Below are positions 37,695-45,247 of a stretch of DNA of 64,000 bases, one piece after another; the first letter of the stretch is position 1, and each line of letters starts with the position of its first letter. Source of the stretch: Parcubacteria group bacterium (lineage in GTDB: Bacteria > Patescibacteriota > Minisyncoccia > UBA10092); contig JACPLW010000002.1 in NCBI GenBank assembly GCA_016186325.1, positions 1,485-65,484 of the forward strand, given 5' to 3'. A model generated the notes under the pieces. It did no database searches. It saw only the letters and a program-made list of their open reading frames with translations, and had not been told where the DNA came from. A program made the translations under genes and the position numbers.

Positions 37695-37723
37695 TTGACA
37701 AGATTAGAGTTATTTGGTATAAT
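37695..37723 (+). promoter_or_regulatory. perfect consensus sigma70 promoter (TTGACA-17-TATAAT)
   Basis: TTGACAagattagagttatttggTATAAT; SD AGGAGAAG follows; drives 37762-37968. Confidence 0.7.
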
Positions 37724-37761
37724 TTAAATGCAGGATGTAAATTTCTCAGTAGGAGAAGAAA

Positions 37762-37968
37762 ATGCAGATCAGGAAGCAGTTGAGGCGGATGGCCAACGCG
37801 GCTAACGCGATCGCGGCGGGTCGCGAAAGGCCGATCACCCCGGAGCCAAACGGGTACGCCGGCGAGCATCACCGGATTCGCCACAAGTCCAACAAGGGAC
37901 CGCGGATGCGCGGTTCCGGGACCGCGCCGCGCCGCACGAAGAAGAAGGGTGGTGGCGCCGGCCAGTAG
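37762..37968 (+). CDS. small highly basic protein (GC-rich, hypothetical)
   Basis: 68 aa rich in R/K/G; perfect promoter, strong SD and strong terminator. Confidence 0.55.
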   Translation: MQIRKQLRRMANAANAIAAGRERPITPEPNGYAGEHHRIRHKSNKGPRMRGSGTAPRRTKKKGGGAGQ

Positions 37969-37987
37969 CCGGCGCCCCACACGCCTT

Positions 37988-38040
37988 GGAGCGATTCGTC
38001 CGTCAGTCGACGGACGGACTCGCTCCGGGGCGCTTTTTTT
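37988..38040 (+). terminator. intrinsic terminator
   Basis: GGAGCGATTCGTCCGTC..GACGGACGGACTCGCTCC hairpin then GGGGCGCTTTTTTT. Confidence 0.65.
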
Positions 38041-38567: not shown

Positions 38568-39137
38568 TTACTTTGTAAATTTGAAAGTGGAAAGTATTTG
38601 TTTAAGAATTTCTTTTGATTCAGATGTAACGGGTTGAAGGTTAAAGGTAACGACTCCTCCATTGGGATGAGAAATCCACGCGCTGGCACTGTCGTCAGCA
38701 CCCGTTCCCCAATCAATTGACGCGATAACTTTACCTATCTTAAACGATTCGCACCTCAAGGAATCATTGGGGTATGCGCTACAATAAGTTATTCCCATAA
38801 CACTAAGTTGGCTTTGGGAAATAAAGCCAAGAGTTATAACATACCCGTTATTATATTTCGCTCCTCCGTCACTTCCTTTTGGTAAATAACAAAGAGCGAG
38901 CGATGTATCCCCTAATTCTCTTTGCGATTCACAGGAGGTAGGCGGATATTGAAAAGAATAGTTCAAATTACTGTCGGTATATGTTTTCAAATTTACGGTT
39001 TTATCTGGCGTTGGTGACTGTTGCGCGACAGGTTCTGACTTCTTTACAAAAGCAAAGTATCCTACTGCGCCGGCAAGAGCGGCAACAATAAACAGAATCA
39101 AAATAATGTTTGCAAAATTTTTTCGGTTGATATTCAT
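38568..39137 (-). CDS. secreted hypothetical protein
   Basis: 189 aa with N-terminal signal/TM (ILILFIVAALAGAVGYFAFV). Confidence 0.5.
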   Translation of the reverse strand: MNINRKNFANIILILFIVAALAGAVGYFAFVKKSEPVAQQSPTPDKTVNLKTYTDSNLNYSFQYPPTSCESQRELGDTSLALCYLPKGSDGGAKYNNGYVITLGFISQSQLSVMGITYCSAYPNDSLRCESFKIGKVIASIDWGTGADDSASAWISHPNGGVVTFNLQPVTSESKEILKQILSTFKFTK

Positions 39138-39297
39138 ATGTTAGTTAACAATTTAATTTTTTGATTTTATGATTAAAAAACTTTCTCTTCCCTCTTTTTT
39201 ATATACTATCCGTAAAACACGGTCTCTGTCAAAATTTCAAATTTGTTTTCTGCGTGTTTAGTAAAAATTACCATAAAAATTAAATTTTTTACCGTTG

Positions 39298-39369
39298 CGC
39301 CCTCGAAGGGAATCGAACCCCTATCAACGCCTTAGAAGAGCGCTGCTCTGTCCATTGAGCTACGAGGGC
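39298..39369 (-). tRNA. tRNA-Arg (anticodon UCU)
   Basis: Acceptor GCCCTCG/CGAGGGC; anticodon loop CTTCTAA; T-loop TTCGATT. Confidence 0.75.
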
Positions 39370-39427
39370 AATAATTTAGAATAAACGTAAAATAACATAA
39401 AACGGGTTGAAATTCAACTAAAATTTT

Positions 39428-39498
39428 GCTATAATATTTAAAATATCGGGGTATAGTGTAATGGCAGCACGAGTCTTTTGGGAAGATTTAGTCTCGGT
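39428..39498 (+). tRNA. tRNA-Pro (anticodon UGG)
   Basis: Acceptor CGGGGTA/TACCCCG; anticodon loop TTTGGGA; T-arm CTCGG TTCGAAT CCGAG. Confidence 0.8.
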
Positions 39499-39527
39499 TC
39501 GAATCCGAGTACCCCGACAGAGAAAAA

Positions 39528-39559
39528 CTAAATTTTGGGCCTATAGTCTAGTGGTAGAA
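39528..39559 (+). tRNA. split tRNA-Ala, 5' half (acceptor, D-arm, 5' anticodon stem)
   Basis: GGGCCTA TA GTCT AGTGGTA GAAC A CGTCA TT...; pairs with the 3' half at 39973-40009. Confidence 0.55.
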
Positions 39560-39592
39560 CACGTCATTCGTCCCGATTTATTAAATTTTTAA

Positions 39593-39847
39593 ATGTTTTA
39601 TTGCTATATATTAAAATCGAGAATAAATGGTGCTTATTATGTAGGAAGTTGCCAAAGCATTGCTATAAGGCTTGACCAACATAATAAATTTTTAGTTCCT
39701 TCCACAAAAAGATATGTTCCATGGGATTTAGTCTATCAAGAAAAATTTGTTACATTAAAAGAAGCTAGAAACAAGGAACTAAAAATAAAGTCCTGGAAGA
39801 AAAGAAGTTCTATAGAAAAATTAGTTAAAACATTTCAAAATTTTTAA
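39593..39847 (+). CDS. GIY-YIG nuclease family protein
   Basis: FYCYILKS..NGAYYVGSC...R..QHN GIY-YIG motif; located inside the split tRNA-Ala gene. Confidence 0.8.
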   Translation: MFYCYILKSRINGAYYVGSCQSIAIRLDQHNKFLVPSTKRYVPWDLVYQEKFVTLKEARNKELKIKSWKKRSSIEKLVKTFQNF

Positions 39848-39883
39848 TAAATCGAGGATCCGCGATAACCTTGGTGGGCCCAG

Positions 39884-39957
39884 AGGGCCCATAGTTAAGT
39901 GGTATAACGGCGCATTCGCATTGCGTAAGCGGGAGTTCGATTCTCCCTGGGTCCACC
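39884..39957 (+). tRNA. tRNA-Ala (anticodon CGC), nested inside the split tRNA-Ala locus
   Basis: Acceptor GGGCCCA/TGGGTCC with G3.U70; anticodon loop TTCGCAT; CCA encoded; flanked by 15-bp inverted repeats CGATAACCTTGGTGG / CCACCAAGGTTATCG. Confidence 0.8.
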
Positions 39958-39972
39958 AAGGTTATCGGGACA

Positions 39973-40009
39973 TTGACGAAACGGCGGTCCGATTCCGCCT
40001 AGGTCCACC
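39973..40009 (+). tRNA. split tRNA-Ala, 3' half (3' anticodon stem, T-arm, acceptor, CCA)
   Basis: TGACG AAAC GGCGG TCCGATT CCGCC TAGGTCC A CCA; acceptor complements 39528-39534 including G3.U70. Confidence 0.55.
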
Positions 40010-40111
40010 AAACAGGAAATTGCAAGCAAGAGGGAGTCGCCTTGCCCGTCTCGCTCCCGCGCTCCGCGCGGAAAAATGGTGGCGCAATTCTTGAACAAGC
40101 CCTAAGAGGCT

Positions 40112-40136
40112 ATTTTGTTTTCTAAGAAAACAAAAT
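40112..40136 (+). terminator. hairpin terminator
   Basis: ATTTTGTTTTC-TAA-GAAAACAAAAT. Confidence 0.5.
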
Positions 40137-40145
40137 TCAAATAAT

Positions 40146-40212
40146 GACAAGGTTTTGGGCATAATTATTGAGGTTTTAGGCCATATTTTTGATTATGCCC
40201 AAAACCTTGACA
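40146..40212. promoter_or_regulatory. 21-bp inverted repeat overlapping the -35 box (candidate operator)
   Basis: TGACAAGGTTTTGGGCATAAT ..25 nt.. ATTATGCCCAAAACCTTGACA. Confidence 0.5.
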
Positions 40213-40235
40213 AACTGACGTAAATTTGCTATAAT
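40207..40235 (+). promoter_or_regulatory. perfect consensus sigma70 promoter (TTGACA-17-TATAAT)
   Basis: TTGACAaactgacgtaaatttgcTATAAT; ~215-nt leader to SD AAGGAGGAG. Confidence 0.7.
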
Positions 40236-40456
40236 AAAGATATAAAAATTGATGTAGTTTTAGATCAATTTTTGCTCTTGTTCTTTGCAAATTTGCGAGC
40301 GAATCTCCTTGAGATTTTGAAATGAGCAGCGCATTGAGTGGCTGAAACACCACTTGTTGCGCTAACAGATATTTAATGCACTGCTTATAACGAGTTAGAC
40401 CTCGTCGTGGTCGTGTAGGACACACGATTCAAAATCGCAAACCAAAGGAGGAGCCG

Positions 40457-41133
40457 ATGGAAGTAGGAGTGCTGTTCTCAAGCGACGGCATTCTGGCGCT
40501 AAACAAACCGCCCGGGATGTGCAGTCAGGGACCCAAGACTTCGGATATCCCGGAGTTGTGGGAACTGCTACGAACACACCACCCTGGCGGTCATGTCGCT
40601 CATCGGATCGATCAGTACACATCTGGTATCAATCTAGCTGGTGCTTCAAAACGGCAGATCAGTTATCTGATGCGTAACTGGCACCAGATCACGCGAAAGA
40701 ACTACCTGTCTGTCTCATCAACAACCCGACGTGGAGCGAGAAGGTTGTGGACACGCCCCTCAAGGGTAAGTCCGCAATCACTGCGTTCACGGTGCTTGAG
40801 CGTTCTGGATCGTTGGCGTTGATTCAATGCCAGCTAGTCCAAAACGGGCGGACTCATCAAATCCGGCGACACCTGAAGTCGATCGGTGCACCGATCGTCG
40901 GAGACCGAAAGTACAAGGGTCCGACAACCAGGGTGCGGTCTGGTCAACTGCTTCATGCGTGGCGCATGGAGGTCAGACTGCCGGACGATTCTGGTAAGCC
41001 CGGCCCTTGGATTACCATTCAGGCGCCGATCCCCAACGATTTCAAGCAGATCAACTTCGATTGGAGTCGCTGGGATGCCAACGCCAACACAACGCTGGAG
41101 ATCTGGGCAGTTCCCTCCGGTTGGCGACACTAA
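40457..41133 (+). pseudogene. RluA-family pseudouridine synthase, frameshifted (GC-rich)
   Basis: Frame 1 carries HRIDQYTSGINLAG (RluA catalytic Asp motif); frame 2 (40747-41133) carries the RluA C-terminal half (GRTHQIRRHL..GDRKY); frames overlap around 40747-40822. Confidence 0.65.
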
Positions 41134-44880: not shown

Positions 44881-44953
44881 GGGCGACTAGCTCAATCGGC
44901 AGAGCGTCTCGTTTACACCGAGAAGGCAATAGGTTCGAATCCTATGTCGCCCA
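44881..44953 (+). tRNA. tRNA-Val (anticodon UAC)
   Basis: Acceptor GGGCGAC/GTCGCCC; anticodon loop TTTACAC; T-arm ATAGG TTCGAAT CCTAT. Confidence 0.8.
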
Positions 44954-45123
44954 TAATTTAGCAAAGTGGGCCAAAGCCAAATGTTTGGCTTTGGCGGGAA
45001 TTTTAGTGAGCTTTAGCGAGCGTTAAAAAATTCCCCGGAAGAGCGACTCGTTTATTCCCGATTTGTCTAAAAATTCAAGTTCTTGTAGAATTTTTAGCAA
45101 CAAATCGCAATCCCGCTTAAAGT

Positions 45124-45197
45124 GGGCGCATAGCTCAGCTGGTTAGAGCGTCGCATTTACACTGCGAAGGCCCTCCGTTCGAATCGGAGTGCGCCCA
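45124..45197 (+). tRNA. tRNA-Val (anticodon UAC), second copy
   Basis: Acceptor GGGCGCA/TGCGCCC; anticodon loop TTTACAC; T-arm CTCCG TTCGAAT CGGAG. Confidence 0.8.
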
Positions 45198-45247
45198 CTT
45201 TGTGCGGGACACCGAGTAGGTCCGAGGTTCAATCCCTCGAACGCCCA
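45198..45247 (+). other. tRNA 3'-fragment (T-arm CGAGG TTCAATC CCTCG plus acceptor AACGCCC A) directly abutting tRNA-Val
   Basis: No matching 5' half; lies between tRNA-Val and a tyrosine recombinase gene. Confidence 0.4.

Follow-up and report, generated by a model that had tools for sequence, protein, structure and literature searches.

A putative nuclease cassette carrying a spare tRNA gene within the anticodon of a Parcubacteria tRNA-Ala(CGC) gene

Introduction

Genomic islands and prophages that integrate in transfer RNA (tRNA) genes restore the end of the gene, use tyrosine or serine integrases with att sites at its 3′ end, and have lengths of kilobases. The split and multi-intron tRNAs of archaea are interrupted in the D-, anticodon- and T-loops, with a bulge-helix-bulge motif and a splicing endonuclease, and the interrupted gene is functional. 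Here, we analyze a tRNA gene that is interrupted in another manner, located in a stretch of 64,000 nucleotides (the window) from a metagenome-assembled genome (MAG) of the Parcubacteria group, within the candidate phyla radiation (CPR, or Patescibacteria), the plus strand of which was read in order over 39000–40600. There, a resident tRNA-Ala(CGC) gene is split in its anticodon by a 400-bp insert containing a GIY-YIG nuclease gene and a complete second tRNA-Ala(CGC) gene. Our results make it likely that the resident gene was invaded by a selfish, nuclease-driven cassette that compensates its own insertion and whose movement we infer. Like the tRNA-integrating islands, this insert carries a copy of the displaced part, but it has only a nuclease, lies in the anticodon and measures 400 bp. 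As in the archaeal genes, loops are interrupted, sometimes several times; in contrast to them, no bulge-helix-bulge motif is present and an intact copy accompanies the relic.

An earlier reading of this stretch, made from the letters alone (the sequence-only reading), considered none of its explanations for the insert to be standard. Nevertheless, a precedent with the same logic exists in the mobile open reading frames (mORFs) of fungal mitochondria, known from Allomyces macrogynus atp6 and from Glomus atp6, atp9, cox2 and nad3, where an endonuclease gene (GIY-YIG or LAGLIDADG) is found with a foreign replacement piece and the native piece is left as a relic (PMC3630166). In both systems, a free-standing endonuclease gene sits in an essential gene, the relic matches close relatives and the carried part is divergent (PMC3630166). 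Several features by which mORFs are identified are found in the window, namely an endonuclease open reading frame (ORF) and an intact divergent copy inside the insert, a native relic, a precise insertion and uninterrupted alleles in relatives. In contrast to mORFs, the cassette is bacterial, targets a tRNA anticodon, carries a whole gene instead of a gene end, has terminal inverted repeats and two hairpins, and encodes a bare Slx1-like domain of 84 aa. By analogy, it is best read as a bacterial tRNA counterpart of these fungal mitochondrial elements.

Three further systems are related in part. In phage T4, the GIY-YIG gene segB is reported to lie in a tRNA cluster and its product to cleave the rival genome, promoting the inheritance of its own gene and of the flanking tRNA genes; this "intronless homing" by a GIY-YIG gene adjoining tRNA genes resembles the situation described here (PMC2330249). 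SegB differs from the cassette in being larger, of the I-TevI lineage and located between genes, with neither terminal repeats nor a split relic, and no phage relatives of the window nuclease were found in IMG/VR or INPHARED. In Patescibacteria, the genes for tRNA-Asn and for tRNA-Asp carry group I introns at position 35/36, and annotation tools miss the interrupted gene (PMC13011429). The phylum, the unusual anticodon position and the missed annotation are thus the same as in our locus (PMC13011429), whereas the window insert has no ribozyme core, has G...A ends and brings a spare tRNA. Finally, ribosomal RNA (rRNA) genes of CPR bacteria contain GIY-YIG genes within insertions other than group I or group II introns, mostly located at the tips or bases of stem-loops (PMC11270868). 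These insertions come from the same bacterial radiation, but they target rRNA and no replacement copy was reported (PMC11270868).

Regarding the protein itself, stand-alone Slx1-like proteins are minimal domains whose role has not been described, and Dunin-Horkawicz et al. (2006) asked whether further GIY-YIG members could be molecular parasites (PMC1564403). The best sequence and structure matches of the window protein are BH0048 and EF2693 (UPF0213) and eukaryotic Slx1, which also consist of a minimal GIY-YIG domain free of accessory domains. Nevertheless, Slx1 is a structure-specific repair nuclease that needs Slx4, and the bacterial proteins are without an established function, target or mobile context. 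Full-text searching of the literature on GIY-YIG proteins with tRNA genes, nested or disrupted tRNAs, UPF0213/Slx1 and CPR did not return the arrangement described here, and no description of tRNA genes nested in tRNA genes, or of this nuclease family as a tRNA-replacing cassette, was found in the searchable literature.

The interrupted tRNA-Ala gene and its uninterrupted relatives

The sequence-only reading proposed a tRNA-Ala gene split within its anticodon loop, with a GIY-YIG gene and a complete nested tRNA-Ala(CGC) inside, and all of these features were found, although several boundaries had to be moved. The 5′ half of the outer, resident gene (GGGCCTATAGTCTAGTGGTAGAACACGTCATTCG, tRNA positions 1–35), located by its motif at 39537..39570 on the plus strand, begins with GGGCCTATAG and ends with CGTCATTCG, where G35 is nucleotide 39570; its start had been placed 9 nt too early, at 39528. 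The 3′ half (CATTGACGAAACGGCGGTCCGATTCCGCCTAGGTCCACCA, positions 36–76 including CCA), located in the same manner, was correctly recognized as well and its coordinates are now 39971..40010 (plus strand). Between them, alignment with empty sites delimits an insert of exactly 400 bp (39571..39970, plus strand) with the termini TCCCGAT...ATCGGGA, instead of the 0.41 kb first estimated. When TTCG and CAT are joined, ARAGORN accepts a tRNA-Ala(cgc) with the loop TTCGCAT, which is also the anticodon loop of the nested tRNA; the match between the two halves is not due to chance. The proposed pairing of the exon ends exists as GTCCCGA/TCGGGAC, the version given previously (CGTCCCGA/TCGGGACG) being wrong in its last base, which is A.

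Relatives of this locus carry the gene without interruption. Scanning metagenome contigs with an exact 22-mer from the outer 5′ half yielded 22 loci (comparison loci are designated by L-numbers), 20 of which hold an uninterrupted tRNA-Ala(CGC) reading ...ACGTCATTCG followed directly by CATTGACGAG..., as predicted for the join, while in the other two an element occupies this position. Identity between the joined outer sequence and these 20 uninterrupted genes is 90–97%, a value that is partly forced because the contigs were found by the exact 22-mer. Two syntenic loci with an uninterrupted gene, L064 and L059, have the gene order of the window, with the tRNA-His region, tRNA-Arg(TCT) on the minus strand, tRNA-Pro(TGG) and tRNA-Ala(CGC), at 83–90% identity. 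The anchor of this synteny is the upstream neighbor, tRNA-Pro(TGG), recognized by ARAGORN and Rfam at 39447..39518 (plus strand). Filled and empty sites were compared by pairwise alignment after removing 39571–39970, as MAFFT placed the empty genes on the inner tRNA and was uninformative. Once 39571–39970 is deleted, the window is colinear with L064 and L059 over tRNA-Pro(TGG), the spacer and tRNA-Ala(CGC), and the joined outer tRNA is identical to that of L064 at 69 of 71 positions (34/34 nt in the 5′ half and 35/37 in the 3′ half). In this alignment, the insert sits exactly between anticodon positions 35 and 36, with boundaries that cannot be shifted by even 1 nt, and no target-site duplication is visible against either empty site. 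A second filled/empty pair is formed by L070, which carries an ORF-less element, and the empty L055/L058, which have the downstream gene in common with it.

The D-stem mismatch C12.A23 and the T-loop TCCGATT of the outer tRNA were considered as signs of decay and rejected, since both also occur in uninterrupted genes, for example L054, and are therefore not evidence that the outer gene has decayed. Position 55 of tRNAs is normally U or pseudouridine. T-loops reading TCCGA, with C at this position, were observed in otherwise intact CPR tRNA genes (L054, L029, L034, L035 and L045) and in the window at 39987–39993, and they may represent a lineage peculiarity of tRNA structure or modification in CPR bacteria.

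Resident and carried tRNAs belong to different types

The inner tRNA-Ala(CGC), which the sequence-only reading rightly took for an intact gene, is placed by ARAGORN at 39885..39958 (plus strand; Rfam tRNA score of 66.8 bits), a slight correction of its coordinates. It has G3.U70, A73 and an encoded CCA, and is presumed to be the working replacement gene. Its identity to uninterrupted genes of the resident type is only 75–82%. The differences between the inner and outer stems are compensatory, both in the anticodon stem (CGTCA/TGACG versus GCGCA/TGCGT) and in the T stem (GGCGG/CCGCC versus GGGAG/CTCCC), and therefore each of the two evolved as a working tRNA, in lineages that differ. The inner tRNA instead comes close to tRNAs carried by other elements, with 91.7% identity to that of L001 and 2 differences in 74 positions to that of L074/L075; L001 and L074 are the loci whose nuclease genes are most like that of the window. 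In the closest elements (L074/L075, L076, L077/L078 and L065, encoding the related nuclease proteins P0003, P0002, P0005 and P0004, respectively), the outer and inner types are as in the window, yet the adjoining genes are different.

The roles of the two types are reversed in L062 and L069, where the outer type of the window is intact inside a different hairpin cassette that is lodged in a relic of the inner type of the window. In the oriented copies of these loci (~1740–1900 in L062 and ~1400–1570 in L069), the cassette has the repeats CACCCCGTTAGACAT/ATGTCTAACGGGG, without TCCCGAT ends and with no ORF nearby. As this cassette differs from the TCCCGAT frame, at least two unrelated cassette families nest tRNA-Ala genes.

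Architecture and fold of the element

The insert is composed of two hairpin modules. Module 1 encloses the ORF: the left terminal repeat, followed by the AT-rich 5′ untranslated region of the ORF (TCCCGATTTATTAAATTTTTAA, 39571..39592, plus strand), forms the left arm, which is kept in homologous loci and pairs, in the single-strand fold, with the last ORF codons and ...TAAATCG-A-GGA. The right arm (...CATTTCAAAATTTTTAATAAATCGAGGA, 39826..39858, plus strand) accordingly overlaps the last codons (TFQNF) and the stop of the nuclease gene. Module 2 encloses the inner tRNA, its left arm TCC-G-CGATAACCTTGGTGG (39859..39877, plus strand) pairing with CCACCAAGGTTATCG-GGA in the right arm, which includes the right terminus (CCACCAAGGTTATCGGGA, 39953..39970, plus strand); both arms were located by motif and by the fold. 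The 15-nt inverted repeats noticed around the inner tRNA by the sequence-only reading are those at 39863–39877 and 39953–39967. Because the right arm begins inside the ACCA end of the inner tRNA, the stem of hairpin 2 extends the acceptor stem coaxially. Across loci, hairpin 2 shows 29 distinct stem sequences, all of them complementary, with 291 Watson-Crick and 13 G.T pairs, 11 of the latter being the G3.U70 of the enclosed tRNA-Ala, and this scarcity of wobble pairs may point to a constraint acting on the DNA. Where the modules meet, there is an imperfect palindrome (ATCGAGGATCCGCGAT, 39851..39866), which is present in a single copy in the window and kept in sister loci as ATCG[A/T/C]GGATCC[G/A/T]CGA; it has the appearance of a right end joined to a left one.

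Folded as a single strand, 39537–40010 forms the outer acceptor, D, anticodon and T arms together with a three-way junction bearing both hairpins (z = -5.97 versus shuffles). A promoter-like site, TTGAAA-17-TATAAT with a preceding TG (39407..39435, plus strand), matches 11 of 12 consensus positions upstream of tRNA-Pro, while no comparable promoter was found inside the element and no intrinsic terminator in 39150–40500. This promoter is likely to produce a single transcript comprising tRNA-Pro, the outer 5′ half, the ORF and the inner tRNA.

The inverted termini, together with short ORF-less derivatives (L070, L006, L014, L074 and 45055–45209 of the window), are those expected of a terminal-inverted-repeat DNA transposon or a miniature inverted-repeat transposable element. 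Nevertheless, the target-site duplication and the transposase (DDE or similar) of such elements are lacking, no duplication being seen at the window site and the sole protein being a GIY-YIG domain.

The nuclease

The GIY-YIG gene was correctly delimited from the outset at 39593..39847 (plus strand). Its 84-aa product, of the Slx1/UPF0213 type by Pfam, PDB and Foldseek comparisons, matches Pfam PF01541 with 50.6 bits against a cut-off of 22.6 (E 2.4e-13) and is 100% identical to one NCBI entry from a Parcubacteria-group MAG (P0001; P-numbers designate related nuclease proteins), although an exact look-up of the protein gave no record. Leaving P0001 out of the alignment, the 26 closest relatives are 49–83% identical to the window protein, and Y5, Y15, Y16, G18, R26, H30 and E62 are invariant among them. 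Pairwise ratios of non-synonymous to synonymous divergence (dN/dS) are 0.06–0.16 at dS 0.7–2.2, and therefore the nuclease is kept by purifying selection.

A profile search of PDB sequences retrieved first the UPF0213 proteins, which are the stand-alone BH0048 and EF2693 (1zg2, 5.3e-7; 1ywl, 4.2e-5), followed by Slx1 (3.8e-4) and I-TevI (5.6e-3). The AlphaFold2 model of the protein has a predicted local distance difference test (pLDDT) score of 93.4, and in Foldseek its top match is again 1zg2, then Slx1 7cq3 (root-mean-square deviation 2.0 Å, 36% identity), with I-TevI only at E 0.7. As judged from sequence and from this model, the protein is a bare catalytic domain of the structure-specific Slx1 lineage, closer to Slx1/UPF0213 than to UvrC or I-TevI.

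The family is large, with 15,169 cluster representatives at E<=1e-3 and 2,944 at 1e-10. Many annotated members have N-terminal extensions of 20–60 aa, and in the three that were checked (P0007, P0013 and P0015) it is the upstream tRNA relic that is translated (e.g., FVPI = TTCGTCCCGATT). A distant GIY-YIG gene (39% identity) lies at 255506–255799 of the replicon AZO_p3 of Azospirillum lipoferum 4B (L079), between sufB and sufC of a conserved operon and with no tRNA context, a placement typical of free-standing selfish nuclease genes. A second GIY-YIG gene in the window, suggested by a weak tblastn match at 62346–62507, was discarded, since the match falls within an unrelated ORF of 245 aa.

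Recurrence of the cassette and fate of the outer halves

The association between this nuclease and tRNA genes is recurrent. Among 51 genomic loci encoding a relative, mostly from CPR bacteria and two from Bacteroidota, a tRNA on the same strand starts -20 to +150 nt from the end of the ORF in 44 (Ala(CGC) in 12, Ala(TGC) in 11, Glu in 13, Gln in three, Pro(GGG) in two, and Gly, Ile and Leu in one each). All 25 non-redundant elements in tRNA-Ala genes show either TTCG at the outer left boundary with an inner CGC anticodon or TTTG with an inner TGC, and the element termini TCCCGAT/ATCGGGA are common to these 25 loci. An intact copy with the same anticodon is present in the window and in all 25 sister elements. 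The empty sites, the separate resident and cargo types and this recurrence together favor the proposal, already listed as a candidate by the sequence-only reading, of a mobile insertion with its own replacement tRNA-Ala.

The cassette exists in several variants. L070 is an ORF-less element with an intact tRNA in otherwise intact halves. A sister element is also found elsewhere in the window, at 45055..45209 (plus strand; ARAGORN and sequence), where two hairpins occur without an ORF and the second encloses an intact tRNA-Val(TAC) (45124–45198). It sits at position 35/36, between TTTA and CAC, of a tRNA-Val(TAC) relic with its 5′ piece at ~45039–45054 and its 3′ half at 45210–45247, which is counted as decayed because ARAGORN does not rebuild it. 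Extra hairpins (~44966–45038) are present in the 5′ part of this relic, and another intact tRNA-Val(TAC), belonging to a third sequence type, is located at 44881–44953. Double hairpins that are empty occur in the D-loops, T-loops or stems of relic tRNAs in L006, L014, L074, L076 and L077. L004 represents a nest of three levels, in which the inner tRNA is itself split after TTCG by an element containing a further intact tRNA.

In the subfamilies found in tRNA-Glu, Gln, Gly and Pro genes, the copies are partial: the D-loop of the intact tRNA contains the ORF stop, and upstream this tRNA is represented only by a partial 5′ copy. Similarly, elements in or next to protein genes (L008/L009, L022, L005 and L028) are accompanied by a short displaced copy of the 5′ end of the gene. 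The tRNA-Glu, Gln and Pro loci and the protein-gene loci thus also follow the partial-replacement scheme of mORFs. At 2960–3330 of L022 and 2950–3340 of L008/L009, the element is in the displaced 5′-end copy, directly upstream of the intact gene start; the protein targets are an rpmE-like gene (MKKDIHP...) in L022 and a Cys-rich protein with two paralogues in L008/L009, and the right flank is always CA(A/T). The paralogues L008 and L009, from one genome, share a near-identical tract consisting of the element with 26 nt upstream and ~43 nt downstream, while their gene bodies are 50–65% identical, which resembles, at the sequence level, a signature of co-conversion in protein genes.

The outer halves have fared unequally. 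Only four of 52 protein-anchored loci (the window, L007, L016 and L021) rejoin to a tRNA recognized by ARAGORN; the 3′ half is gone in L065, L012, L042 and L018, and the stems are broken in L013. A genuinely split tRNA, the third candidate of the sequence-only reading, is therefore not retained, since outer halves at sister loci are deleted or full of further insertions; moreover, the halves are not the sole source of this tRNA, an intact tRNA-Ala(CGC) lying between them.

Alternative explanations

Among the alternatives to a mobile cassette, the one that survives best is a domesticated expression module that no longer moves, in which the paired outer halves would be a selected acceptor/T-arm scaffold for processing or stabilizing the nuclease mRNA and the inner pre-tRNA. 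It would explain why the outer 5′ half is conserved despite the saturated synonymous divergence of the ORFs and why the region folds as a cloverleaf-like frame with a z of -5.97; besides, the sole good promoter lies upstream of tRNA-Pro, so that the ORF needs read-through via the outer 5′ half. We nevertheless consider it unlikely. The flanking genes differ among the closest elements (window, L074, L076, L077 and L065), empty alleles are common, and the absence of the outer 3′ half in L065 and others abolishes the scaffold, while the co-conversion-like spread into paralogues and the nested invasions point to movement.

The second alternative places the process at the RNA level, as an intervening sequence amounting to a new type of bacterial tRNA intron, which an enzyme would cut by means of the paired termini and a ligase would rejoin, leaving the outer tRNA-Ala functional beside the inner one. 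Indeed, the termini pair (G35:C36 and TCCCGAT/ATCGGGA) and bring the exon ends together, the outer halves are intact in the window, L070, L016 and L021 and more conserved than expected of neutral relics, and the ORF-less double hairpins occur only in loops of tRNA sequences. The GIY-YIG genes in insertions of CPR rRNA genes that are not group I or II introns, mostly at the tips or bases of stem-loops (PMC11270868), and the use of position 35/36 by true group I introns of Patescibacteria (PMC13011429) would also be compatible with it. However, no ribozyme family is matched even at E<=10. A 5′ exon ending in G with an insert ending in A does not suit group I, and the two junctions face one another across an uninterrupted helix that lacks a bulge-helix-bulge. 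Ends produced by RNase III are not religated in known cases. Each tRNA element has, inside or next to it, an intact copy with the same anticodon, for which there would be no need with functional splicing, and the outer halves are deleted or broken in many sister loci. Taken together, an RNA-level intervening sequence is quite improbable.

The established classes of intron were examined in the same context, since a degenerate intron was among the candidates of the sequence-only reading. Rfam searches of the whole window at the gathering score, and of 39380–40480 at E<=10, returned only tRNAs and noise, with no group I or II intron or other ribozyme. With group I introns, the 5′ exon terminates in U and the intron itself in G. 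Here, there is no Rfam Intron_gpI core, the 5′ exon ends in G (39570) and the insert in A (39970); a group II intron has no Rfam match either, and the only ORF encodes a GIY-YIG domain, not a reverse transcriptase. An archaeal or eukaryal tRNA intron is rejected because TTCG and CAT are either unpaired at a three-way junction or have their junctions facing each other in a continuous helix, with no bulge-helix-bulge in either case. The degenerate intron is therefore abandoned, in agreement with the remark, made from the letters alone, that the insert is too short and AT-rich for a group I core: only ~70 nt are left outside the ORF and the tRNA.

A local accident, in which tRNA-Ala was duplicated in tandem before an unrelated GIY-YIG gene inserted and the locus rearranged, and in which the inner tRNA would consequently not be cargo, is very unlikely. 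Outer and inner copies are identical or nearly so in some loci (36/36 in L010 and 34/36 in L024), and in L002 and L017 the ORF lies between two direct tRNA copies, as this explanation would predict. In the window, however, compensatory stem changes separate the inner from the outer tRNA and each matches its own set of foreign sequences, and L070 shows the same cassette, ORF-less, in otherwise intact halves. The accident is largely refuted by the exact boundaries, the terminal repeats and the tRNA in hairpin 2, which recur in 25 loci with different flanks.

Lastly, although the window comes from a MAG and assemblers can be misled by repeated tRNA sequences, a chimeric assembly is extremely improbable, because more than 25 assemblies, independent of one another and produced in separate projects, show the same design with different sequences; one of them is a closed chromosome (L018, OY970216.1). 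The design is therefore not an artefact.

Several observations nevertheless weigh against a mobile cassette and must be interpreted cautiously. No presence/absence polymorphism was seen within a species, the closest empty site being in a genome 83–90% identical in the flanks, and no phage carrier of the element was found in IMG/VR or INPHARED, nor was a plasmid carrier, where only distant plasmid or chromid matches were obtained, one of them the Azospirillum gene between sufB and sufC. The nuclease is without the DNA-binding domain of the classical GIY-YIG homing enzymes, and its activity is presumed from the invariant catalytic residues and the dN/dS values. The anticodon loop of the inner tRNA (CATTCGCATTG) is the same as that of the target, a difficulty for its presumed protection from cleavage. 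Furthermore, outside the loop there is little homology between the tRNA types of donor and recipient, a point that sits uneasily with homing driven by homology alone. Finally, divergence among the outer halves is surprisingly low, at 3–6% for the window, L074, L077, L065 and L070, although the nuclease genes differ at dS 0.7–2.2. The simplest reconciliation of these conserved halves would be repeated homing into intact alleles, which stay conserved because they are functional in element-free genomes, such alleles being abundant in the same environments (sample 3300027835 contains the empty L064 as well as the filled L075); selection on the outer halves would fit as well.

A possible mechanism and its implications

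For a mobile cassette, the following scheme can be proposed. The nuclease would make or provoke a break in the DNA of a tRNA gene at loop-encoding positions, and extruded or single-stranded hairpins could be what it recognizes, given its affinity to Slx1 and the insertions exclusively at loops. Recombination-dependent repair would then place a copy of the donor cassette in the break (homing). As an essential tRNA gene is destroyed by the insertion, survival would be limited to cassettes with an intact copy of that tRNA: the carried tRNA would rescue the cell, with the split outer halves becoming a displaced pseudogene and the inner tRNA the functional gene. Expression of the ORF and the inner tRNA would probably start at the resident promoter located upstream of tRNA-Pro, and the inner tRNA would be freed by RNase P together with 3′ processing. 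The ORF-less forms may derive from replication slippage or from the action of the nuclease on long palindromes. Repeated invasion of the currently intact copy would produce nested relics and a horizontal turnover of tRNA genes; L004 is a case in which an inner tRNA with the same loop was itself invaded.

A broader idea, which we put forward tentatively and regard as rather doubtful, is that the nuclease and the TCCCGAT/ATCGGGA double-hairpin frame define an unrecognized class of bacterial mobile element, guided by structure and not by sequence toward loop-encoding tips in tRNA, rRNA and some protein genes, without target duplication, with hairpin or cruciform intermediates and with a replacement copy in essential genes. 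If so, tRNA genes would be continually replaced by horizontal transfer across CPR and some Bacteroidota, and the large UPF0213 family would gain a function. In a bolder variant, the ORF-less hairpin inserts would also be removed from RNA and constitute a new type of bacterial intervening sequence.

As regards the cassette itself, a selfish element would have colonized the anticodon, where the constraint on an essential gene is greatest, by means of the spare gene that it brings. This would extend the mobile-ORF principle from fungal mitochondria to bacterial tRNA genes and imply that tRNA genes are exchanged horizontally as cargo. It would also explain annotation pitfalls in CPR genomes, such as duplicated tRNAs of different types, tRNA fragments and "missing" tRNAs, and would for the first time place the widespread GIY-YIG proteins of the stand-alone Slx1/UPF0213 type in a concrete biological context. 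In addition, a nuclease of 84 aa with an apparent ability to find the loops of tRNA genes is a well-defined target for biochemistry and possibly a compact tool.

Other features of the window

Elsewhere in the window, two tRNA-Val(GAC) genes of clearly different types lie on the minus strand (932–1030 and 2470–2570), each preceded by the same 24-nt spacer, CCACTAAGTTGATAATTTAATAAG. At 2546–2637 this spacer follows tRNA-Ile(TAT), and at 1005–1030 it follows only a ...CACCA remnant. This arrangement resembles a further case in which a tRNA gene was partially duplicated or replaced.

Upstream of the interrupted gene, a GC-rich island (37696–38030, up to 63% GC) follows a consensus-like promoter identified by eye at ~37696–37725. 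No convincing Rfam match was obtained for the island; it contains a small Arg/Gly-rich ORF from the ATG at 37763 and is partly conserved in the related contigs L066 and L073. Downstream, an RluA-type pseudouridine synthase (Pfam PF00849) extends over two overlapping frames (40457–40822 and 40747–41133) within 40457–41133, owing to either a frameshift or a sequencing error; its GC content is 51–57% versus ~35% in the surroundings. A near-perfect palindrome of ~80 nt (40137–40218) overlaps a perfect sigma-70 consensus, TTGACA-17-TATAAT with a preceding TG (40207–40235), located ~220 nt upstream of the start of the pseudouridine synthase.

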